A DNA stretch of 62,787 nt, the filler included, from Sphacelaria rigidula (Eukaryota): assembly GCA_964200075.2 (NCBI GenBank). It is 4 parts of 4 records of this genome, joined end to end, with 100 filler letters (N's around TTAATTAATTAA, not from the genome) between each part and the next. Parts side by side here need not be neighbours in the genome. Positions count along the whole stretch, not along the records: positions 31,447 to 47,068 come from CAXNAA020001667.1; 3 more parts are not named here. One strand, written 5' to 3'. A program made the position numbers and the translations under genes. Below are positions 15,624-47,168 of this stretch, piece by piece (within the stretch, counting starts at the first letter, position 1; each line of letters opens with the position of its first letter). The notes under the pieces are model-generated. The model was given only the letters and a program-made list of their open reading frames with translations. It did no database searches and was not told where the DNA came from.

Positions 15624-15723
15624 NNNNNNNNNNNNNNNNNNNNNNNNNNNNNNNNNNNNNNNNNNNNTTAATTAATTAANNNNNNNNNNNNNNNNNNNNN
15701 NNNNNNNNNNNNNNNNNNNNNNN
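15624..15723. other. Artificial scaffold spacer N44-TTAATTAATTAA-N44
   Basis: 12-mer with stops in all six frames at 15668-15679, between runs of 44 N. Confidence 0.99.
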
Positions 15724-16284
15724 AAGCAACAAATGAGGACGTCCCCCCCCCCCATGTAAGGGTGGTCCGGCGAGAACCCGGCGTGCTCTGCCCCGGATTT
15801 GTAGGGGCGGACCCCCATGGGGTTGACGTCGCTTGGCGATGGCGCTGTAAAACACGCCACTCACTGCGTAAGCGAGGCAACCAGGTTGCTGATTTTTTTG
15901 CGCGCTTGCGTTTTTTTTTGCGGTAACCATGATGGTGGTCGAGCTAGATCATATTTTTCAGGGTGGGAAAACCTCAACTCCGCGCTGAGGGGATGGTCAT
16001 GCTACCTGGTGTTTTGACGGTGAGACACCCATGAGGCTGTGCATAAGCCGTAGCTGTCTCTGGGAGTGGCAACACCAGAAAAAGAAGCAACTCATGGGAG
16101 GCTGTCATTCGAAAGGAAGATAGTCAGTAGGCTTCGGGCCGAACACACCATGGCGCTTCGCTTGGTGATTGAGTGCGAGCCTGGTCCAGCGAAAACCCAG
16201 CGTGCTCCTTCCCGGCTTTGTAGGGATGCGACGTCAAAGGTCATTTGACCATGACAAACAAGATCACGAGTACCCTCCCCTCCC
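15724..16284 (+). mobile_element. ~600-bp abundant interspersed repeat with internal direct repeats
   Basis: Alignable along its length to the reverse complement of 39575-40160. Fragments at ~75-155, 28420-28520, 31447-31515, 45456-45520, 45727-45805 and 47169-47272. Confidence 0.85.
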
Positions 16285-16728
16285 GCCGACGGATGATGAC
16301 CTTTTGGATCTCGAAAATCTTGTACTGGGGGGGTCGTATACACGATCCTCCATGGTCGTGGGCGCGATTGAATTCGTGATACTCGGTCTCTACATCAACT
16401 TCACCAGGGACGCACACCCACACGACGTCAGTCACTCGTATACGCAATAAAGACGCATAACATTGCACTTCACCCGGATGATAGATTTTTCGACATACTA
16501 GATGCTAGGATCTGCATCTTGCGTATACAGCAATAGCCGTATTTTTTAAAATCAAAGTACAGAGAAAAAAGCCACGCCCTGGACAAAATAGACAACAGTG
16601 GAACAAGTGTACAGGGCCAAGTATCAAGACTAATGTTAGTCATACTGTCGTGTGTTATTTTTCATCTTACGCCCGTACATCTTGTCATTTCCCACTTTAC
16701 ATGTAGCAATACACCAACACAAACACAC

Positions 16729-32152: not shown

Positions 32153-35100
32153 CTGGCGCCCAGCAAGATGGGGATGGGGTACAGCGCTGCTAGCCCCGGT
32201 CCCGCCAGCTCGACGAAGCGCCGCTTGAGGAATTCCGTGAAGCCGAACGACAAGCCTCCGTACAATAGGTACCCCACGGTGGTGGCACCAAATCCTAGCA
32301 GGAAAGCCTCCGCTCCCTTGTTCGACGGACGACAGTTGTACAATGTCATCATCAACAACATAAATCAAACACCATGACGGCGACCACCACGGCAACGACA
32401 ACAAAAATAAAATAAAAATAATAAACACGACAGTTGCTCTTTTTTTTTCACAACAATGGGCATTGGATACAAGAGCAGGGGGGACACAAAAAATGACGAC
32501 AGAAAGGAAAAGCGAAAATAAATCTACCTTTGATTAGATCATCATAATGGGAAATATGAAGAACACTGAATAATTGTGACGACAACGACAAGTAAGAAGG
32601 AAAAAGAACCAATAAAAAACAGAGTATTTCAGGTGTTGGGTGATACAGCAACGCATGCCGAGGTTTTCATCATACGATAGTTTGGACCAGAACACAGAAG
32701 AACGTAAACAGATACGCAAGTGAAACTGTTGTGTAGTCATCAGGCGACATAGCCGTCCTTTGGTGGTATAATACTTCATCGTCAATAGCAGACGACATAT
32801 CTACTCATACAAAAAGGCCAAGAGGCACAAAAAGAGAGCAAGAGTGAAAAGTCAGGACAACCGCCTGTACTGTTTGTTACTGGGTAAAGGATAAACACCA
32901 ACACAGCCTCCGCCTATTTTGTACGAATCATTCAGTCACGCGTAGGGGTTTGTGCGACGCACAACACACACGCACGCATCAATTGAACACACCCTGTATC
33001 TCACCACGCCATCTCGAGAGGAAAAAAAAACGAACACGCATACACAAAAAAACGTTTCTGCAGTTAGGAACTGCTTTTTCATTTGCCTCAACTGTAGTGG
33101 CGAAAATGATCGAGGTTGGTTCACCCTTGTTCGACTACAACCAATCCATGGTTGACATATTATACAAATAACTCTAACCCTGAACCTGACCCAGACCCAC
33201 GGAGAACCCTCGGGCAAGTGCGGTGCGGAACGTTCCCTAGACAGCATGTGAGTTGGGAGACATCAAATCAGCGCCCACGACGCCGATTTGGACTGAAACG
33301 TGTTGAGCGCACGCTATTATAAAAGCAGCACTCGAGGCGGTCAGCCCCCCCACTAAAGACCCGAATATCGGTGTTGAGACTCACTTCAAGTAATATCATT
33401 CATGTGATCATTGCAGCCGAACTGCGGTGTACTCTACTGAATTGTATCCCTTCAGTTTGCCCTCCTTTTCCTTACATGCACCACCAGCTTTCAGCTCTCG
33501 TTAACGCATACTGAATAATGTTTCCCCACGCGGCATTATTCCAACGTAAAGGATAGATCAAATGATTCACAATTATGCGAAGAGAGCTACAGCCACCGGT
33601 TCAAGTACATACTCTCGTGAGGGCAGACAAACTACCATGGTTTACTCAGACACCTTGATGGTCCAGATTTGTGTTTATCTAATAGAAACCGAGGTACGTT
33701 CACGCAAGTCGGTCGCATAGTGCCATGGTTGGCATGTATTTATGCTTGCGGTCTTGTTGAAAACCTACCTCAATCTGCAACCCAAGGCAGATCGAAACGA
33801 CGAGAGCCCTCAAAGAAAAGAGATCGAGAGAGTGCGCTAGGTAAGATTGCGAAGGAAAAAATAATCGCCGTATACCCAGGTCCAGATTTCGCATCGTTAC
33901 TGGTACACGTAGAAGCCATTTTCCATAGTCCACCACTAATTTAATGTCTGAATAGCTTGGGCCGCGGTATATCAAGCATGTCGTGTTCGTTGTATCAACA
34001 GCAACACTGCTCTCGTCATCAATACAGATGGATGGTGTCTCTTCGCTCCCTTAGATCTGAAATATCCATCCAAACTTCACTTGTAAGGCTACGTGAGCAG
34101 AGCTAACAGCAATCCCCCCCCTCCCCCTTCTCCATTGAGGACGAGGGATAGACAAGGGATAGGTAGGTGCGAGAGTAGTGAGACGAAGCAGGGTCATGAT
34201 CCAAAACCATAGTCTAGTCTCGTGGAGAAGGAGGTTGATTACATCACGCGATGGATTGTGCGACAAACAAGGCCTTGAGGTTCATACATGCGATTACCGT
34301 ACTTAACGCCGTCTGCCAGCGCAGTACATACACACAGCACAGCAACACAAAATGAGCGAATGAACAGCGTTACCAATAAGTTATTATGTGAATAATACGG
34401 GGAGCGGGAGCGCTCTCTGCTTCTGTCTAGGTCCACACACATATATGTATATATACAGCAGATGACCAAGCAGCGAGGGAACGCTGTGCACTCGACACAA
34501 AGCCGGTACTTCACAGAGCTGTTGTTCATATTTTCTGTAAAAGATATGTGATTTCTCTTTCTATAGCTCAAATACGTGAGGACGTGAGTAGCAAAGGAAG
34601 GTAATCTAACAGGAGTCGACGCGATGCAGAAATGCTGCTTCCGTCCGCGATACCAAAATCTAGGGCGTGTACGGGGGGGAGACATATGCTGATCTATTGA
34701 GACCACGGAGTTATCCGGAGGAGGAGGTGGGGGAAGAGGGGGCATGATGATATAATGGCAAGAAAAAAATCAAGAAGTACGAGTTTTGCACTGCAGGATA
34801 GCAATTCCATGAGAGGTGTCCTCCTCCTAAGCCCGCCGACTACGGAAAATCCTTCAACCTTCATTGCAGGAGCATTGCCGCATGATACATGAATCCCCCA
34901 AGCGTAAAATAAAATGGACACATACACATACACATACACAAGTGCGGCACACGTCTGACACGTTCGTAGTGAAGGAATGCAGGCCACAAAAAAACGCACA
35001 CACACCTCCTCCTTGATGAGGGTGTTGAACGCCGTAATTACGTCCGGGTATCGACGCGGCTCCGACTGCATGCGCGTCTTCACCACATCCAGCGGAATGA

Positions 35101-38100: not shown

Positions 38101-41100
38101 TCTCGGGTACGTCTATCCTGTGACTATCGTGTGACCACGGCTGGTCCTCTGAGGATCAGTTAAAGTGCGATAATCGATCAATCAATCAACCAACCAATCA
38201 ATCAATCAATCAATCAAATCGAACAAAAAATCAATAAAATCAATAGAATCACTAAAATCACTAAAATGAATCAAATCAATCATTATTTTGCTCTCTCGAT
38301 TGAATTTCCTCATATTTTCCCTTCCTCGAATTTTTCTTTTGCGAGTGTTTTCGATTATTGGCTCTTAGTATGCCTATATCGTATATAATGACCACGCTTA
38401 GATTCGTAATAGATCAGTTAATGCGCGACAATCAACCAATCAATTAGACAACCAATCAATCAATCATTTTGGACCACAGTACTCTTCGGCAACAAGAGCT
38501 GTGACAGCAGCCTTCAGCAGTAGGAAGATATTCATCATATTTCGCAGCATACGAGGCCGTATCGTGGGCATGCATGTGCACAACAGAGGTATCCTCAGCA
38601 TGGGGGAAAAAACGACAAAACAAAAAACGCATCGATAAAATTCAGACCGGTAACCAGCTCAAAAGGGGTACACATTTTCATTGTCGACAACGGTATGTTG
38701 AGGTACAGAGGTGGTCAGCGAGGTGCTTCATGGCGAATCCGGCCGACATGGTTCGTTACGGGACAATATGTCGCCAACCGCATGACGACTACTGACCCAA
38801 GCTGAACGGATCCGTTATACCGATGGTGGACCACCAGGGGGACACGGTAGCGGCCAAAACAAGGTACAGGAGTCGCCAAAACGGCCAAGTTTTTTAGCCC
38901 AAGGAATGTTGACGCCCACGGGAAGTGGAAGCGAGACGACGGCAACCTGTCGTTTGGGTAGAATTTTAGGGTTGAAGACAGCTCTTGCGGTTAATCCGTA
39001 ACGGCGCAGCTGTTTCAGGCATCAGTCACGCATTTATTTCAAGTTGCATAGAAGAGCAGCAATAGTAACATGCGATGTTCCCAGAATGCTAACGACACAA
39101 ATCGGGTCAAATTCATGATATTTTTTTGCGCAGCAAGGAAGAAAAAAATGTAACCAAACGTGGCCAGAACGACAAGGCTAAAATAGTACGTATCTTTTTC
39201 TGGTCGCTGCTTCGAGGAATGCAAGGAAGAAAATATTTCCTAGTCTGCAAATATCATGGCCTAGCTAGCACTGTACCCTCAAGTGGCCAAAATGACAAGG
39301 TTACCGCATACCTCCTTTTGGATGCTGCCCCAAAGGAAAAAATGAATAAAATGCCGTCCCTTATTTTGGTCGGTAATAAATCATGGTACACAGAAGAATA
39401 CGACAGTATGAATCTGAATTTATCTTCGACGACACTTTCTTACCTTTGGCGGGGGAGGATCTATGGTGACCTTGACGGCTATGGTGCTCGAATATCCACT
39501 GCCCTTGTGCACTACTCGTAGCTCAGCGACCTGGCTCCCTCAGCACGGACGAGATGAGCGCGTAGAAAGTGAGAGGGGGGGAAGGGGGGGTACTTATGAT
39601 CATGGATGCCATAGTCACATATGACCATTGACCTCGCATCCCTACAAAGCCGGGACGAAGCACGCCGGGTTTTCGCCGGACCAGGCTCGCAATCAATCAT
39701 CAAGCGCGAAGCGCGGTAATGTGTTCGGCGAGTCGCATGAAAGATGAGCTGCATTCTGCTAAGATTCTCCGGCCCAAAGCGCACTGATTATCCTGCACAT
39801 GGATGACAGCCTCCAATGAGTTGCTTCATTTTCTGGTATCGCCACTTCCAGAGACGGCGATAGGTTGCACACTGCCTCATGTGTGTGTCACCATATCAGC
39901 ACTACGTAGTACGATCATCTCCTTTGCGCAGAGTTCGGGTTCTCCACCCCGCACAACATGATCTAGCTCGACAACCATCATAGTTGCTACAAAACGCAAG
40001 CGAAACAAAAACTGTAACATGGCTCCCTAGCTTACGCAGTGAGTGGAGTGTTTTACAGCGTCGTCACCATCCGATGCGAACCCTTCAAGGCGGGGGAGGG
40101 GGCGTACTTATTTGTTGTTTGCCTTAGTCGTTTGACCATTGACCACGCATCCCTTCCGGGTGGGGGAGGGGGCAATCTGACGGTCAGCCACGCTATTTGT
40201 TCATGCAAAATTACAGGCAACCCTACGTATTTGCATAGATTGGCCCTTCATGAGCGGTACCCAGTAGCTGTCCTTCACACACAAACAGTCGGCATTTCAC
40301 CCTGCAGGCCACACCCGAGGCTCTTGCTTCTGGGATCAGGTACCTTCAACACAGAATCTCAAGGAGTTCATGATATTTATTCCGCGATGTAGAAGCATGA
40401 GTCATACCGCACAATATGAAAGTTCGAGGAAGTTTCGAGTAATATTTGAAAAAAATCGAACTTTGCCCAAAACGAAATATGAAATTTCAAAGAGGCATAT
40501 GTGTGTGCTTAGAGATCAATCGAAATTCGACTTCCGAACGATGGCAGATGACTTCAAAAAGAACAATGAAAAATGTACACTCGCAAATGGAGCAGGGGGT
40601 GGAGAGGGTACGAAGGGCTCAAGATTCAAAGCATATGATTCAGCTGCACAAGAGACAGTATATTTTTGCTGTCTGTTCGGCAGCGCGTGTGTGTGATACA
40701 GTAAGTCAAACTAACAAGCTCTGCGAACGAATCAGCTCGACTTGAAGACCACATAGCACTGGGTACCCCTCAGGGGCTGGGCGTTCAACAACGTTCAACA
40801 CAGGCAGCAAGTGTGCTCTGATATGTTTGGGGCAGGTACACTTGCTGACACGGGTGTAGAGGCAAGATAGACCAATCTGACACCACTTCACGAAATACTC
40901 CAAAACGGCTGTCGCGCATGAATGGGGTGAGTATGTATACGCGATCTATATATTCAAGCACAAGAATATACATGATGAATGAAATTAACGCTCGACTCGC
41001 GCTGTAAAGCGGGTTAACCTCCAACTATCGCCCCATAGGCCGCGTGTTGCATGTGTTGCATGTTTGTGGTGTTACAAAATTCTAGCTTTGTAGCCGCCGC

Positions 41101-44100
41101 GCCCCGAGGGTGTAAGGGTACAACTGACATCATCACGGCGGGGAAAACGCAGGTTCGATTGCCGCTGGATGGATTTACATCAGTCTGGCTTTTTGGTCAC
41201 AAGTCTTTCATTTCTGTTGTCGAAAGTGTGAGCACGTGAATAGTCAAAACTTTTTTCATTTTTTAGTCCTTCTCCGTTTCTTTCCTTTCCCTTTTATTTT
41301 GTCTAGTTCTGCTTGTTTGTACTTGTCTGTGCTCTTGTCTCTGTCTTGCTTTGCTTTGGTTCGGTATTTGTTCTTTCATTTACTCGGCCTTATTTCTTCT
41401 ATATTTTTTACTTCTGCCCTTTAATTTTTTGTCTAGTGAGCAATCCCCTCTTATTGACCTTGGGCGCACCACATTCATCTAGTGGCCACGGCTTCTACGC
41501 AGAACTATTAGCCCGAGGCGCGTTCTTTAGACCCGTATAAAAATGTGCCCCAGCGCTACACGGACTCAGTATAAAGAAAATAGACAGGTGGTGCCGAGTT
41601 TTGTTTGTTTAGACTTGAAGAACGCAGTGCTGATTTTGGCTGTGCACACAAACTTGAACAAACTTGATCCGTTGCACCCCTCACTGGACAAGACTGATCC
41701 GACCGCACCGGGGTGACATTTTTCGTGCGCGCATGACGTGTACTGGTGGATTTCTATCTGGCCTTTCGCCGTGAAAATGGCCGCCGTCCGTCTTTTCTCT
41801 TTCCATCTTTATTTCTTTGTCGGGGCTTGAAGTAATAAGGTAGCTGGCCCGGGTACGGAAGGGGAGAGTTCCTAAAAGGCCCATGTGGGATATCCAATCT
41901 ATCAATCAATCGACGCAACACCATCTCACAGCGAATCTGACCGCGAATTGTTCAGCTTCCGGATTTTCGTGTCGACTCCAGTACCGTGGTGGAGAGTAAC
42001 ATGTGCGACTTTCGTACTTGAAAACAAATAGGACGATTGACTGTACAGTGTACTTTGTCCGTGCGGGCATCAAGTAGGCAAGTGTTTGGGCGTTCCCAGC
42101 AAACGTATACACGTTCAGTACGTATCCGCCTTCCGTTTTCCGTACAAGAGACAAATATTCAGGCCGTAGTCCAGAACCCCAACGCACCTGCGCCAACGTC
42201 TCATAAAATGCGATTTTATGCTTTGTAACAAGAACAAAATATATTTCAGGTTTGGATTTTTTTTTTTTTAAACATGGAATGATACGTTGGTTGGTACAGT
42301 ACATACGGTGTACGTATTCAAGTCCTCGAGAGTGACCTTAGCCCACTCATAGCTGTATACGGGAAACTTACACGGTTCGGACAAATCAAAGTTCATACGG
42401 GTTGACTTTCCAGGAATGTGGAATGCGAACCATGTACCAAGGAGCCATCCGGTACGAATCACCGATGGAAAAGTTGTACATTCAGGGTCGTACCACACGC
42501 ATCACGAAGGTGTACACCCCAAGTAGTATCAGTCGAACCAAGCCTTCAACATACGTACGAATCACAATTCCTGAATAAATCATGGGTGGGAAACATGTAC
42601 ACTTGGTTCATGCTTTATGAACGGAAAGTGGGAAGTATGTACGCTTGATTCACCTCTCATGGATGGAAGGCAAAGAACAGGTCCAAGTGATCCCTGCTGC
42701 ACGGACGGAAAATGGGAAAATATGTACCTGTGATTCAGGTCGTATGAATGCTGGGTGAGGAACGCGTGCCCATGATTCATGCCGCATGGATGAAAGGGGA
42801 GATACATGTACGCCTGATTCACCTCGTTCGAATGGAAGGTGGGGAACGTGTATCTTTGATAGATGCTCACCAACGCAAGGTGGAAAGCAAGTACATGAAC
42901 CACATCATTCATGCTGTATGAATCAGAGGGGAAAGGTACAGCATGTGCTTATGATTCATTTTTTTGTTGTCCGTTGTCCGCTGTACAGATTGTAGAGTAC
43001 TACGCTGTGCTGTGCTGTGCTGCACTGTCCGCCAACTGCGGTGGGCGCTGCCGGAGTGTTTCCGAAACTCACGGGAACATGTGGGGACGACTCTTGCAGT
43101 ACTGATGTCGTCTGAAGCTGTCCTTGTATTGATTTAATACATTCAGGCCAGCTGTTCAGCAGAACACACGAGGAGCAGAAAGGCCGTCAATCGCTTAGCT
43201 CGGGAAAAAAAATAGCTGGAAGAATTACTCCAAGCGCGCAGATTCGTGCAGGTGCTACGTTTTCGCAAATGTTCGTGGTATCGTATACAGTATTTTGGTT
43301 TTGATTGATTGGTTGAATGTCGCACTTCAACTGTCCCGCCAGGGATACAGCCGTGATCGCATGATAGACGTACCCAACACACAACTATGAACCACTTGCT
43401 GAAAAAAAAAGTAGAAGAGAAGGACATAGTAGACTAGGACGCTCGAGACAGGAAAAAAAAAATAATAACATGAGAAAATAAATAAAAGGAAAAGAAAGCA
43501 CAAAAAGAACTGGCCGGTCTCTGCCATACGGCTTCAGCTACAAGGTTTTGCGCAGAACCACACTCATACCCAGTCGTAGGAGACAAGAGAACATGGGAAG
43601 GAAAATATTGCAGCCATCTACTACAAACGCTCTATTTAGGGTATGGGCCTTCTCAATTACGAAGAAACACAATGAGCGAGGCACCACGTTGCTCTGACAT
43701 AAACCATACACCGGCAGGAAAGAACATGTTTGTATAGAGAGAAAGATGGAAATAAGGGAGAACAGAGAGGAGACTACAAAAGTGAAGCAAAAAAGAGAAA
43801 AAATTCAACGCAGCAGAGCAGATACAGACACACACCAGGGAGCACCGCAAAGCCACTAAGGATACAATCAACAACCGATATGAGCAGACAGTATTCTTCG
43901 ATCGGCGGCTCTCGACGCAGCAGCCTCTCGTTTGTGGCGGCGGTCCGATTCTCGTTTGTCCGGGCGTCGCCACGCATTTTCAAACTTTTCCGCTCCTTTT
44001 TTGACTCCAATATGCCATTTGTCAATTTTTTTCGCCGCAGTGACCAAATCATGTGCATCGTCAACCAAGAGCATGGTCTGCACACAGTGTGCTTGACCAT

Positions 44101-45439
44101 CACATAAGACACCGGGCTGGGGGTTGCGGAATACAAATGGCCAGCCGGGATGATAGTTGCAGTCGAGAGTCTAGCATACGTGACTCCAGACCATACGAGT
44201 GCGGCACAGACAGCACTGCATAACATAGACTCACTTTCACGTGCAGAGGCGTGGTCTTGACTTGATTGCAAGCGAGATCTCTCCAAGTAGACGGATGATA
44301 GCTTTTTTGTTAGGCTTTGCTACTGGATAGCTGAACGATAGAACTAGGTGGCTGGAAGTTGTGAGGGACTGGATACGGAGTAAACCAAACTGGAATACAG
44401 CACTAGTAAGATGCGAATGGAATACGACCTATTGCACATGCCATGCGTACTTCGAAACGCCTTCTCTACTTACAGCTGATATCCACCGTAACATCTCATT
44501 CATGCCGAATGAATGAAAGATGGGAAACATGTACCCATGATTCACACCACACGAATGAAAGGTAAAAAACGTGTACCTTCACCACACGAATGAAAGGTAG
44601 GAAACGTGTACCTTCGACAGTGCACCGCACGAACCACGAACTGGGAATGTGTACCCTCCAGGTAGTATCGTACGAATCACCAACCCACAACATGTACAAA
44701 TCGTAACTTGTGTACAAATTGTATCACAGTCGAATATGAATCGAATCACATTTGTATCCGTCCTAACCGTGGAAAATTAACAATTGAGGAATAGGAATCT
44801 GCGTGCGTGACTATTGTAGTGGTGAGAAGCTGGGATTTTCGATGTGCTTGTCTCGACGGCCTGTCGTTCTAGTCCGCGATTCACTCCTGCGCGTTTTTTT
44901 CTTTCCATCCTATTGGCTTTTCCATATACCCCCGGGGTGGAAGTCTAATACGATAGCCATACTCCCAGGGCACATGACGAACACGGTAACATAACCCCCA
45001 GGACGGCGAATGGGTACCACGGTAGTACACGAGGGAAAACTGTTTTGACGTCTATGATTTATTACTTGGATTGAGCATGTATTTGGATGCCAATCGAATA
45101 CCAGTTAAAGCATAAAGCGGAGGGACATTTACGCTATTTATCGTATTGATGATAATAATAATGAAAATAATAATACTAGTAACAATCGTAGTAGTAACAA
45201 TAGTGATGAGAAGAAGAAGAAGAAGAGGAACATAACCGCAGTTCCCACTCCAACTTTCGCGCGAGATACTCATAAATGTTTCAACATCCTGCGCCTAACG
45301 TGAACCCAAGCCGCACCTGCATGTCCATCACCACCTGAGCGGTGGCGCAGTTAATCACCCCCTCCACGAACCCCAGCGCAGCATTTGCAGTGTCCTGATC
45401 CGGAGGAGGAGCCGAGATGGACACCTTCACATCATCATC
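32153..45439 (-). CDS. Mitochondrial carrier family (SLC25) protein, phosphate-carrier-like, with long N-terminal repeat-containing extension; partial at both ends
   Basis: Six in-phase GT-AG exons: 45439-45317, 39530-39444, 36453-36217, 36002-35944, 35195-35006, 32316-32153. Carrier signature P-x-D-x-x-K-x-R (IPLDVVKTRMQ) and PiC-like helix 2 (GFGATTVGYLLYGGLSFGFTEFLK). Confidence 0.9.
37820..38222 (+). mobile_element. Retroposon-like 3' end with (AATC)n tail
   Basis: Pyrimidine-rich body, then gaccacggctgg...atcagttaa.gtgcga.aatc and (aatc)n. Related ends at 38390-38466, 55909-55968 and, on the minus strand, 17850-17925, 36690-36760 and 43300-43380. Confidence 0.65.
39575..40160 (-). mobile_element. 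Second near-full copy of the ~600-bp repeat
   Basis: Reverse-complement homolog of 15724-16284, bounded by G-rich runs; lies ~45 bp from the acceptor of carrier exon 39530-39444. Confidence 0.85.
42371..44771. mobile_element. Interrupted TIR element with internal ~38-bp tandem repeats
   Basis: Ends cacggttcggac / gtcctaaccgtg. Degenerate units (tgtacc..tgattca....cacgaatgaaaggtgggaaaca) at ~42570-42960 and ~44497-44700, separated by unrelated insertions. Confidence 0.55.
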
Positions 45440-46516
45440 CTGAAGGCATCGGCAAGGGGGGGGGGGTCTCATTTTTTGCTTGCCGTCGTTTGACCATTGA
45501 CCACGTGTGCCTTTCGGGACAGAGCACCGTTCCTACTCCTAATAGAGACACCCTCAATACTTGGGCGCTAGGTACATTTCTTCCATACATTATACACAAG
45601 AACCTTATACAAATCTCCCCCCCCCTCTCCCATCAATCAGTTTGTGAAGCGATCGTTCCCTGGCTACTTTTTGATGATCCAAACGATTAATGCCACAGTC
45701 GTTCACGTCTCACATCTCCCTCTGTTCGGGGGGGGGGGGGGGGGGGGGGGGGGGGTACTCATCTGTTGCTTGCCTTAGCCATTTGACCGTTGACAACGCA
45801 TCCCCGTCGAGGCGGAGCACAGGGGGTGGGGGAAGCATGTACAGCGAGGTACATGATACATAATGCGGAGACATGTAGCCAGCACAGTAACTTTCGACTC
45901 TGAGATGGACTATGTCACATGTGGGGTTCAGAACGGCTCTTTTCTCGCTACACAAAACGCCTGTTTTCATGATCATGAGGATACTGGGCACCTACATGAA
46001 AAAAGTTTCCGGAGAACCCCTGTCAGGTTCTGACGGTGCAGTCAACAGCGTACAGAGTGAGTCAGTATGTATGCGGTACGTCTCCGCTGGATTCAACGGC
46101 AAGAAACAGTCAGCGTGCCATCGCTCTCTACTGAACACAATTCACCGCATGCTGCTGATGCTGATGCTTAATGTTCCACAACACCACAGTGAGAAGCTAT
46201 GTGGGCAACGCATGAGGCGTCAGACAGGCGGCATAGACATCGAGCAGAGTACAAAGCAAGCAAGTTATACTCATGTAATTTACGGCTGGGTTATCATGAC
46301 AAAAATGATAAATACCGGTAAAAAGCCAAGTAGTCCACCTGTAGCCCATCTGTAGGATAACTACGTGCTCATTTGACAGCCATAATTGTTCAGAATGGTC
46401 ATTCCGCACCTCTCGGGCCTCGTGCTTGGCTTAGAATCTTCCGCGGGAAACTTCCGAACACATGAAGTTGACTTGGTGAGCTTTTTGACTGCTCTGCGGA
46501 CAGCCCCCCTCCCCCC

Positions 46517-47068
46517 CCTCAGAACAGGGTTGGGAATGTGCACACTTGAAAGACATGAGAAAATTGCGATGACGATATAGCGTGAAGAACATGCAGTGAA
46601 AGAGACTGCCAGCTGTGGTTGATAGGGCTATATGGAAGAAAAGTACGAACGGGAATGCTATAAGGTGGGATAGAGAAGTCGAGAAAGTATGGCAGGAGAC
46701 AGGCGGAAACCAAGCCGAAATACTGTCCATGGATGAAGGCGTGGGGTACAAGACAAAAGTAAGAAACATGACATGAATAAGGAGAAAATGAGCGCTCAGA
46801 CGCAAGGTCCACGAGGAGGAACACCTCAAGATATACGGAGGGTTGAGAGAGGGGATCGGAATGAAGACCTATCTGCATGGCCCCATGGACGCGGCGGAAA
46901 ATATGAAACTGCGATTTCGGGTGGAGGACCTGGACCTGCCAGAAAGAAGAAGGAGATATCACAGTAGTCGTGTGGAGGAAGAAGCAGATGGACAGAACTG
47001 CCTCTGTGGCAAAGCAATAGAAAGCAGAAGTCATGTAGTTGCAGAATGTGAGCTATACAAGGAGGAAC
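46517..47068 (+). mobile_element. Non-LTR retrotransposon (LINE) ORF2 C-terminal remnant
   Basis: Decayed frame with stops and frameshifts (KRLPAVVDRAIW... EEEHLKIYGGLREGIGMKTYLHGPMD...) ending in a CCHC-type knuckle CLCGKAIESRSHVVAEC. Cut by the scaffold end. Confidence 0.75.
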
Positions 47069-47168
47069 NNNNNNNNNNNNNNNNNNNNNNNNNNNNNNNN
47101 NNNNNNNNNNNNTTAATTAATTAANNNNNNNNNNNNNNNNNNNNNNNNNNNNNNNNNNNNNNNNNNNN
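47069..47168. other. Artificial scaffold spacer N44-TTAATTAATTAA-N44
   Basis: Identical 100-bp spacer. Confidence 0.99.

Follow-up and report, generated by a model that had tools for sequence, protein, structure and literature searches.

A composite SLC25-type carrier gene with a phage-type repeat module in the brown alga Sphacelaria rigidula: a candidate thylakoid carrier of ochrophyte and haptophyte algae

Locus and gene model

The window, that is, the whole stretch of 62,787 nucleotides of Sphacelaria rigidula DNA (assembly GCA_964200075.2) analysed here, carries on its minus strand the central third of a nuclear gene of brown algae that encodes a composite transporter of approximately 760-935 amino acids (aa), in which a module of GxGY repeats precedes a carrier of the SLC25 family. 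The window consists of four chunks of about 15.6 kb placed end to end, separated by three identical spacers (44 N, 12 bases and 44 N) at 15624-15723, 31347-31446 and 47069-47168, with a spacing of about 15,722 bases. Since the joining is artificial, genes are cut at chunk ends and adjacent chunks are not necessarily neighbours in the genome. The gene lies wholly in chunk 3 (31447-47068) and continues past exon 6 beyond the end of that chunk at 31447, so that the protein is partial here, covering residues ~388-672.

An earlier note, made from the sequence alone, had proposed six exons that splice in phase, and these were found where it placed them (Table 1). A tblastn search with the 886-aa Undaria ortholog P0002 gave matches spanning its residues 388-676 and revealed no other exons across the whole window. 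AG and GT border each of the six refined exons, which join into a frame of 860 nt with 286 codons and no stops, and the peptides quoted in the note (VKVSISAPPP, CATAQVVMDMQ, VAELRVVHKGSGYSSTIAVKVTIDPPPP and GRPATATAVLSAPP) can be read directly in the sequence. The introns between the exons are spliceosomal and range from 214 nt to 5.8 kb. The joined product shares 83.9% of its residues with P0002 over 285 aa and 78.0-83.2% with six further brown-algal proteins, all seven being aligned over 274-286 aa; identity falls to 57% for Chrysoparadoxa and 52% for P0022. The window holds carrier repeat 1 with the start of repeat 2, preceded by the 1.5 GxGY units that the note had counted: one GSGY core is present, and the orthologs have four units. 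Eight matches to G[SATGN]GY occur in the six frames of the window, one of them in this gene (GSGY, 39503-39492).

Table 1. Exons of the composite carrier gene in the window, with the corresponding tblastn matches of Undaria P0002
Exon	Position	Strand	Length and phase	P0002 tblastn match	Encoded part	Support
1	45317..45439	-	123 nt, phase 0	45439-45314	end of GxGY unit 3 (DDDVKVSISAPPP) and first strand of unit 4 (CATAQVVMDMQ); P0002 residues 388-427	tblastn E 6.7e-09; AG/GT borders
2	39444..39530	-	87 nt, phase 0	39533-39441	core of GxGY unit 4, VAELRVVHKGSGYSSTIAVKVTIDPPPPK	tblastn E 1.1e-10
3	36217..36453	-	237 nt, phase 0	36456-36214	last beta strand of the repeat module (ATATAVLSAPP) and conserved linker (LLPDNLVPMLDP...)	tblastn 92.6% identity, E 2.7e-43
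4	35944..36002	-	59 nt, end phase 2	36005-35943	linker, VYPSQKLARYFSFLDGPRA	tblastn 95% identity
5	35006..35195	-	190 nt	35212-34979	carrier start: helix 1 with signature PLDVVKTRMQ, first matrix loop	PF00153 E 7.9e-11 (enclosing open reading frame)
6	32153..32316	-	164 nt	32352-32140	carrier helix 2, loop, start of helix 3	PF00153 E 0.0035

Sequencing runs provided further information on splicing. Runs X1-X4 carry the tag 'RNA?', which is a guess of the tool, and reliance was placed on contigs that skip introns rather than on the label. These four runs contain 0.24-0.29 of the sampled words of 34950-36500, which comes near the exon share of this interval, about 0.31, while the other runs contain 0.44-0.91. 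Across 32000-45600, contigs of X1, X2 and X4 join exons directly and without a single mismatch. One example, record 6 of X2 (2745 nt), is composed of 45439-45315, 39528-39442, 36451-36225, 67 letters that correspond to exon 4 plus 8 nt of exon 3, 35195-35005 and 32315-32153, and a further 1107 nt precede and 778 nt follow these pieces. In the DNA-like run X5, by contrast, introns are covered continuously, for example over 32000-35569. Because the contigs join repeat and carrier exons, a single spliced product is indicated, and the spliced contigs show that the family is expressed. The two upstream exons, 45439-45317 and 39530-39444, which might have belonged to another gene, are part of the same gene as the carrier in the contigs of X1, X2 and X4.

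These observations bear directly on the explanation that the fusion is an artefact or a recent capture, either two neighbouring genes merged in error or viral DNA newly inserted into a carrier gene of this alga. Only the likeness between the repeat and phage proteins would speak for it. Against it stand the contigs spliced across repeat and carrier exons with no mismatches, the spliceosomal introns of 214 nt to 5.8 kb that set the exons apart, and the occurrence of the same fusion in brown algae, Chrysoparadoxa, a raphidophyte, Pinguiococcus, diatoms and Prymnesium. This explanation is therefore considered exceedingly improbable, and a gene-fusion artefact is rejected on the basis of the spliced contigs and the recurrence of the fusion across the family, unless the contigs represent DNA of a processed copy. 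Altogether, the gene model and the architecture that it implies are hardly in doubt.

Several repetitive features accompany the gene. The intron between exons 4 and 5 contains poly-G/poly-A-rich direct repeats of 97 nt (35586-35839; 76% identity) around a gap of 10 N (35683-35692), and a (GT)n run extends from the donor of exon 3, from 36216 downward. A dispersed repeat occupies 39572-40155, in the intron immediately upstream of the GSGY exon, and recurs at 15820-16287, 28372-28525 and 45522-45552, with 71-80% identity between the first copy and those in chunk 2. Its summed contig depth reaches 27,000-112,000 in X1, X2 and X4 and 630,000-840,000 in X5, with many joints between 40155 and 45522. 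Rfam gave no matches on chunk 3, this repeat included. The element at 39572-40155 is probably a high-copy mobile element that lies outside the gene proper.

Architecture and distribution of the family

Full-length brown-algal relatives of 761-935 aa reveal the order of parts into which the partial protein fits: a presequence, a helical domain of about 160 aa, four GxGY beta repeats, a linker of about 100 aa and three Mito_carr repeats. In the orthologs, the helical domain begins with Y-x-P-x-F-V-x-Y-L-x-R-F-L-x-N-x-D and the linker is conserved (LLPDNLVP...). A search with the linker exon retrieved nine proteins at E<=0.01 among 125 candidates, with 86-92% identity in Undaria, two Ectocarpus species, Scytosiphon, Ascophyllum and Laminaria and 65% identity in Chrysoparadoxa. 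Pfam recognizes three Mito_carr stretches in each of four orthologs (E 2.9e-42 to 1.2e-41), and the count of GxG[YFW] is four in each of P0002-P0007 and in P0009 of Chrysoparadoxa.

The family extends well beyond the brown algae. A HMMER search with the N-terminal 452 aa of P0002 returned 1399 proteins with an E value of at most 1e-3, of which 363 reached 1e-10 and 39 reached 1e-30. Using a hidden Markov model (HMM) of the carrier built from six orthologs, both the repeat module and the carrier were detected in 53 of 169 collected proteins, which bears out the fusion noticed in the window; the remainder are either fragments or proteins of bacteria and phages, in which the number of GxG[YFW] units reaches 43. 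The search for the same fusion in other algae, which the earlier note had suggested, thus yielded members in ochrophytes and in one haptophyte: by name, Chattonella subsalsa (a raphidophyte), a Chrysoparadoxa paralogue, Fragilaria crotonensis, Corethron hystrix, Pinguiococcus pyrenoidosus and the haptophyte Prymnesium parvum. Phaeothamnion and Discosporangium are among the matches to the carrier part. Six of thirty clusters looked up gave an organism, and all named members are ochrophytes or the haptophyte. Judged from these sequences, the composite transporter is common to ochrophytes and at least one haptophyte. Our literature search found no publication on this carrier architecture, and database labels of members read hypothetical, 'ADP,ATP carrier' or 'SLC25A3'; conservation extends from diatoms to kelps in this uncharacterised family.

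Structure prediction supports a well-folded N-terminal module. The AF2 model of the N-terminal 452 aa reached a pLDDT of 85.2 and a pTM of 0.80, with helices in 13-170 and strands in 174-400. From the signal region to carrier helix 1, no hydrophobic 19-mer resembling a membrane helix was found; the sole segment above the hydrophobicity cut-off (360-378, at 1.51) falls within beta strands of the repeats. Since no membrane helix intervenes, the module is expected on the same side of the membrane as the carrier N-terminus. The helical domain gave no convincing structural match in VIA, where it was searched as part of the whole model.

In brown algae and Chrysoparadoxa, a single EF-hand-like loop of canonical appearance is inserted in the helical domain (DLDGDGTLNQEE, DIDTDGVLSKEE), at residues 186-198 of P0002 and ~89-101 of P0009, and the distant member P0015 lacks it. 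Five to six EF-hand models of Pfam all scored below their cut-offs in the four orthologs (EF-hand_8, 24.0 versus 28; EF-hand_1, 20.7 versus 25.4). Assignment to the EF-hand-regulated carriers was rejected on these grounds, the loop being unpaired and its scores lying under the Pfam thresholds.

Two further features were noted in the collected proteins. The orthologs share a conserved C-terminal tail of about 25 residues after the carrier (DDLKVFFDVMSGLEMG), and the full-length model places short strands, at low confidence, at 734-737 in this tail and at 438-440 in the linker. In addition, P0026, P0043, P0058, P0089, P0100 and others (390-610 aa) combine a Tat-type leader, the helical domain and the repeats and have no carrier match. 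Such proteins may be truncated models or genuine stand-alone forms of a lumenal module.

A phage-type repeat module

The earlier note had likened the repeat unit to structural proteins of phages and large viruses, and comparisons of both profile and fold agree with it. Sixteen PHROGs families matched residues 277-451 of P0002, among them virion structural proteins (6.6e-13 and 1.6e-12), head closure Hc2 (4.6e-09), tail fibre (1.3e-07) and baseplate wedge (1.3e-06), and the result for Chrysoparadoxa P0009 was similar. Foldseek against the predicted structures of BFVD gave 53 matches at E<=1e-3. Uncultured Caudovirales and cyanophages supplied the top ones, which are structural, long-tail-fibre and baseplate proteins (best 6.4e-11; 19-26% identity), and two Sylvanvirus proteins were matched as well. 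Furthermore, the profile of alignment A1 matched the phage tailspike Dpo31/Dpo36 in the PDB at E 8e-4.

Other searches were less productive. Foldseek against the PDB found nothing at E<=1e-3 (best 0.025, FliD), and phmmer with the bacterial repeat protein P0160 found no PDB entry at E<=10. Pfam gave nothing on the repeats, either in the repeat exons of the window or in four orthologs, and NCBIfam gave nothing relevant. A wide VIA search with the whole model retrieved none of 48,161 chains at Z>=5; on re-alignment the top row was domain I of the T4 sheath protein gp18, with Z 5.0, a root-mean-square deviation of 3.2, 75 aligned residues and 20% identity, a score within the noise range (Z<8) that we take as a weak hint. 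The corresponding Pfam model, PF22639 (Gp18_dom_I), was seen on P0160 only and below threshold (E 0.0033; 17.8 bits against a cut-off of 27). The closest clusters in a protein atlas consist of hypothetical proteins of viruses, at a score of 0.92, and serve as a lead only.

With high confidence, then, the repeat is of phage type, the resemblance lying at the level of profile and fold. The unit also occurs in bacterial lipoprotein-like proteins (P0010 and P0011). Because bacteria carry the repeat too, and because the algal family predates the split between diatoms and brown algae, the viral origin that had been suggested for the beta-rich domain is not established.

Leader sequences and probable plastid targeting

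A feature that emerged at the family level is a predicted twin-arginine signal ahead of the module, often behind a putative endoplasmic reticulum (ER) signal peptide. Signals of the twin-arginine translocation (Tat) pathway follow a consensus of the [ST]RRxFL type, with a hydrophobic region and a small-x-small end. In 63 members whose leader ahead of the helical domain is 45 aa or longer, we searched for RR followed within 2-8 residues by a hydrophobic window of 12 aa. This arrangement was present in 54 of them, 47-85 aa ahead of the helical domain, while three had KR or RK and six had none; when these leaders were shuffled 200 times, the arrangement arose on average in 5.1 of them (standard deviation 2.0, maximum 12). 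R-R is the majority pair at two neighbouring leader columns in alignments A1 and A2. The leader logo, [S/T/N]-R-R-x-[F/A/V]-[L/F/I] followed by an alanine-rich stretch, matches the Tat consensus, and a Tat-type signal is thus predicted for most of the family, although the brown-algal orthologs, with one R, do not show it in its strict form.

Upstream of this motif, the leaders suggest passage into a complex plastid. An N-terminal hydrophobic core resembling a signal peptide was detected by a heuristic in 29 of 41 members that start with Met and have 35 aa or more before RR, and in 18 of these 29 the same heuristic found [AGSC]F within 20 aa after the core (for example AVA|FTP, ASA|FNP, ATA|FHH and AQA|FLV). 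A small residue followed by F (ASAFAP type) after an ER signal is the import pattern of red-derived complex plastids, and a three-part leader is typical of lumen proteins in these algae. Plastid targeting, raised as a possibility by the earlier note, is accordingly a plausible and indeed probable reading of the leaders.

A secretory, vacuolar or plasma-membrane carrier that displays its repeats in a lumen or outside the cell for adhesion could also begin with an ER signal peptide, and the repeat does sit on surface-exposed proteins in phages and on Bacteroidota-like lipoproteins. However, the first signal is followed by a spacer of 35-200 aa and a second, Tat-type signal, which would be superfluous for an ordinary secretory protein, and we give this explanation little credence.

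A more serious competitor, though still an unlikely one, is a carrier of the plastid inner envelope, where most plastid SLC25 proteins reside, with the module facing the intermembrane or periplastidial space and the RR-hydrophobic stretch acting as a stop-transfer or sorting element instead of a functional Tat signal. A plastid-type leader is equally compatible with envelope and thylakoid, and the second arginine has been lost in brown algae, as expected in the absence of a Tat requirement. Yet the motif fits Tat beyond the arginine pair itself, with F/A/V at +2, L/F/I at +3, an alanine-rich h-region and A-x-A-like ends in addition to the excess of 54 of 63 over 5.1 expected, and Tat machinery is not known in envelope membranes. 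In support of an envelope location, a report on diatom MCFc, a different, characterised plastid carrier of about 40 kDa, presents that protein as envelope-associated (PMC12645085). In the main text of a diatom plastid-transporter atlas, 'mitochondrial carrier' is named once, for J46742.

The carrier part

SLC25 carriers (PF00153) are built from three tandem repeats of ~100 aa, each contributing two membrane helices and a Px[DE]xx[KR] signature. Membership of this family is clear from the three Mito_carr stretches and the signatures PIDVVKTRMQ, PFETLRIK and PSDTILVE. A search with the carrier part gave 480 proteins at E<=1e-5 among 8000 scored. Among the best 120 of these 480, the nearest named stand-alone kin are the mitochondrial phosphate carrier (PiC), the Cu/Pi carrier, inorganic phosphate transporters and SLC25A3, with 34-39% identity over about 85% of the carrier part. 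The description 'phosphate-carrier-like' was hence apt for the closest named relatives, although positions of the binding site differ.

This kinship could suggest a phosphate-type carrier of the mitochondrial inner membrane whose module, once imported, is passed on into the intermembrane space by mitochondrial Tat machinery. The closest carriers among the best 120 of 480 are indeed mitochondrial (PiC/Pic2), an N-terminus in the intermembrane space is compatible with the topology, and TatC is encoded in some stramenopile mitochondrial genomes. Against this stand the ER-type signal in 29 of 41 members, with a small residue and F in 18 (the complex-plastid pattern), and the fact that the named members come solely from plastid-bearing algae. 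A mitochondrial location is consequently regarded as very improbable.

Proposed thylakoid topology and transport

Leader, module and carrier can be combined into one scheme. Most members would carry a tripartite presequence, in which an ER signal peptide is followed by a transit peptide and then by the twin-arginine signal and its hydrophobic region, and the protein would enter the complex plastid. From there the thylakoid Tat pathway would carry the folded N-terminal module into the lumen, whereas the carrier would be retained in the thylakoid membrane with its 'cytoplasmic' face (c-side) toward the lumen. The orientation of the carrier relative to the proton gradient would thereby equal the mitochondrial one, so that a proton-coupled solute, phosphate or another, would move from lumen to stroma, and the lumenal module may serve as a regulator or an anchor. 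According to a review, homologues of the plant thylakoid transporters for phosphate (PHT4) and nucleotides (TAAC) are missing in these algal lineages (PMC5948301), which would leave room for such a thylakoid carrier.

Several points weigh against this scheme. On the side of targeting, the five leader-bearing brown-algal orthologs each show only one arginine (SREAFV, SRASFV, SRESFV, SRAAFV and SRKSFV), and their targeting route may differ from that of the RR-bearing members. The presequence exons lie outside the window, the signal-peptide and Tat tests are heuristics and not trained predictors, and 12 of 41 members show no signal-peptide-like core, some of which may be truncated gene models. 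On the side of structure, the full-length model has a pTM of 0.56 and leaves the domain packing and the seat of the module on the carrier undefined; to our knowledge, the insertion of a six-helix carrier behind a Tat-exported domain of 450 aa has no direct precedent.

The binding site adds to these objections where phosphate is concerned. When 96 stand-alone PiC-type carriers and 32 family carriers were aligned on one HMM, with conservation defined as at least 90% in the stand-alone set, 22 of the 96 PiC-conserved columns were retained in at least 80% of the family carriers. The helix-4 pair, K-Q in PiC (93 and 95 of 96), becomes, among 30 family members, R (14), K (9) or A (5) followed by E (25) or D (2), and Q636 of helix 2 is retained in about one of 32 members (a fraction of 0.03). 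In addition, M827 of helix 6 is changed to F or K, while R824 is retained in 25 of 25 members. Position 730, which ADP/ATP-carrier numbering would place at contact point II, is referred to here only as the 'helix-4 cavity position'. According to a review, substrate class is determined by the helix-4 contact point, and acidic residues occur in the site of proton-coupled carriers (PMC7611774). By its conserved residues, the helix-4 K-Q pair included, the family does not consist of PiC/SLC25A3 orthologues. The carrier thus appears from its sequence to be PiC-derived with a binding site that differs from that of PiC, and because of this difference both phosphate and another solute are candidates, phosphate itself being an unlikely substrate.

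Weighing both sides, we give about an even chance to the composite protein being a thylakoid carrier with a lumen-facing module. More tentative is the fuller proposal that Tat would push a module of 450 aa across the membrane before the six helices are inserted, and that the product, a carrier of chlorophyll-c algae, would be a candidate proton-coupled exporter from lumen to stroma in lineages without PHT4 and TAAC.

Significance

Ochrophytes and haptophytes perform a large share of marine photosynthesis, and their thylakoid solute transporters are almost unknown. If the lumen-facing reading is true, the family would provide a concrete gene for solute export from the thylakoid. It would also represent an unusual substrate for Tat-dependent membrane-protein insertion, and with it a new way to make a polytopic thylakoid protein, and a repeat otherwise typical of phage tails would be at work in a eukaryotic organelle. 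If the reading is false, the family would still stand as a plastid carrier, as yet uncharacterised, whose large domain has a regulatory appearance.

Comparison with known systems

The Rieske protein and FtsH2 are thylakoid membrane proteins routed by Tat, each with a lumenal part and one membrane helix. The algal protein would differ from them in having six helices, which follow an exported module of about 450 aa. With PiC/Pic2 it shares a similarly degenerate third signature (SQPSDT versus SQPADT), R824 and the helix-1 and helix-3 signatures, and it differs from them in adding the N-terminal module of about 450 aa and a long presequence. The phage GxGY proteins (PHROGs 19630, 701, 460 and 5342) are alike by profile (E 6.6e-13 to 1e-7); in contrast to these, the algal family has four units only and carries them in a eukaryotic membrane protein, whereas bacterial relatives have up to 43.

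Among other SLC25 carriers, the calcium-regulated AGC (aspartate/glutamate) and APC (ATP-Mg/Pi) types likewise possess a large soluble N-terminal domain on the c-side, which there regulates transport (PMC7611774). The brown-algal members have one EF-hand-like loop, while the rest of the algal module has another fold, namely the helical domain and the GxGY repeats. Finally, TAAC of green plants is an SLC25 ATP/ADP carrier reported from thylakoid membranes (PMC5948301); it is a nucleotide carrier that lacks a module like that of the composite algal protein described here.

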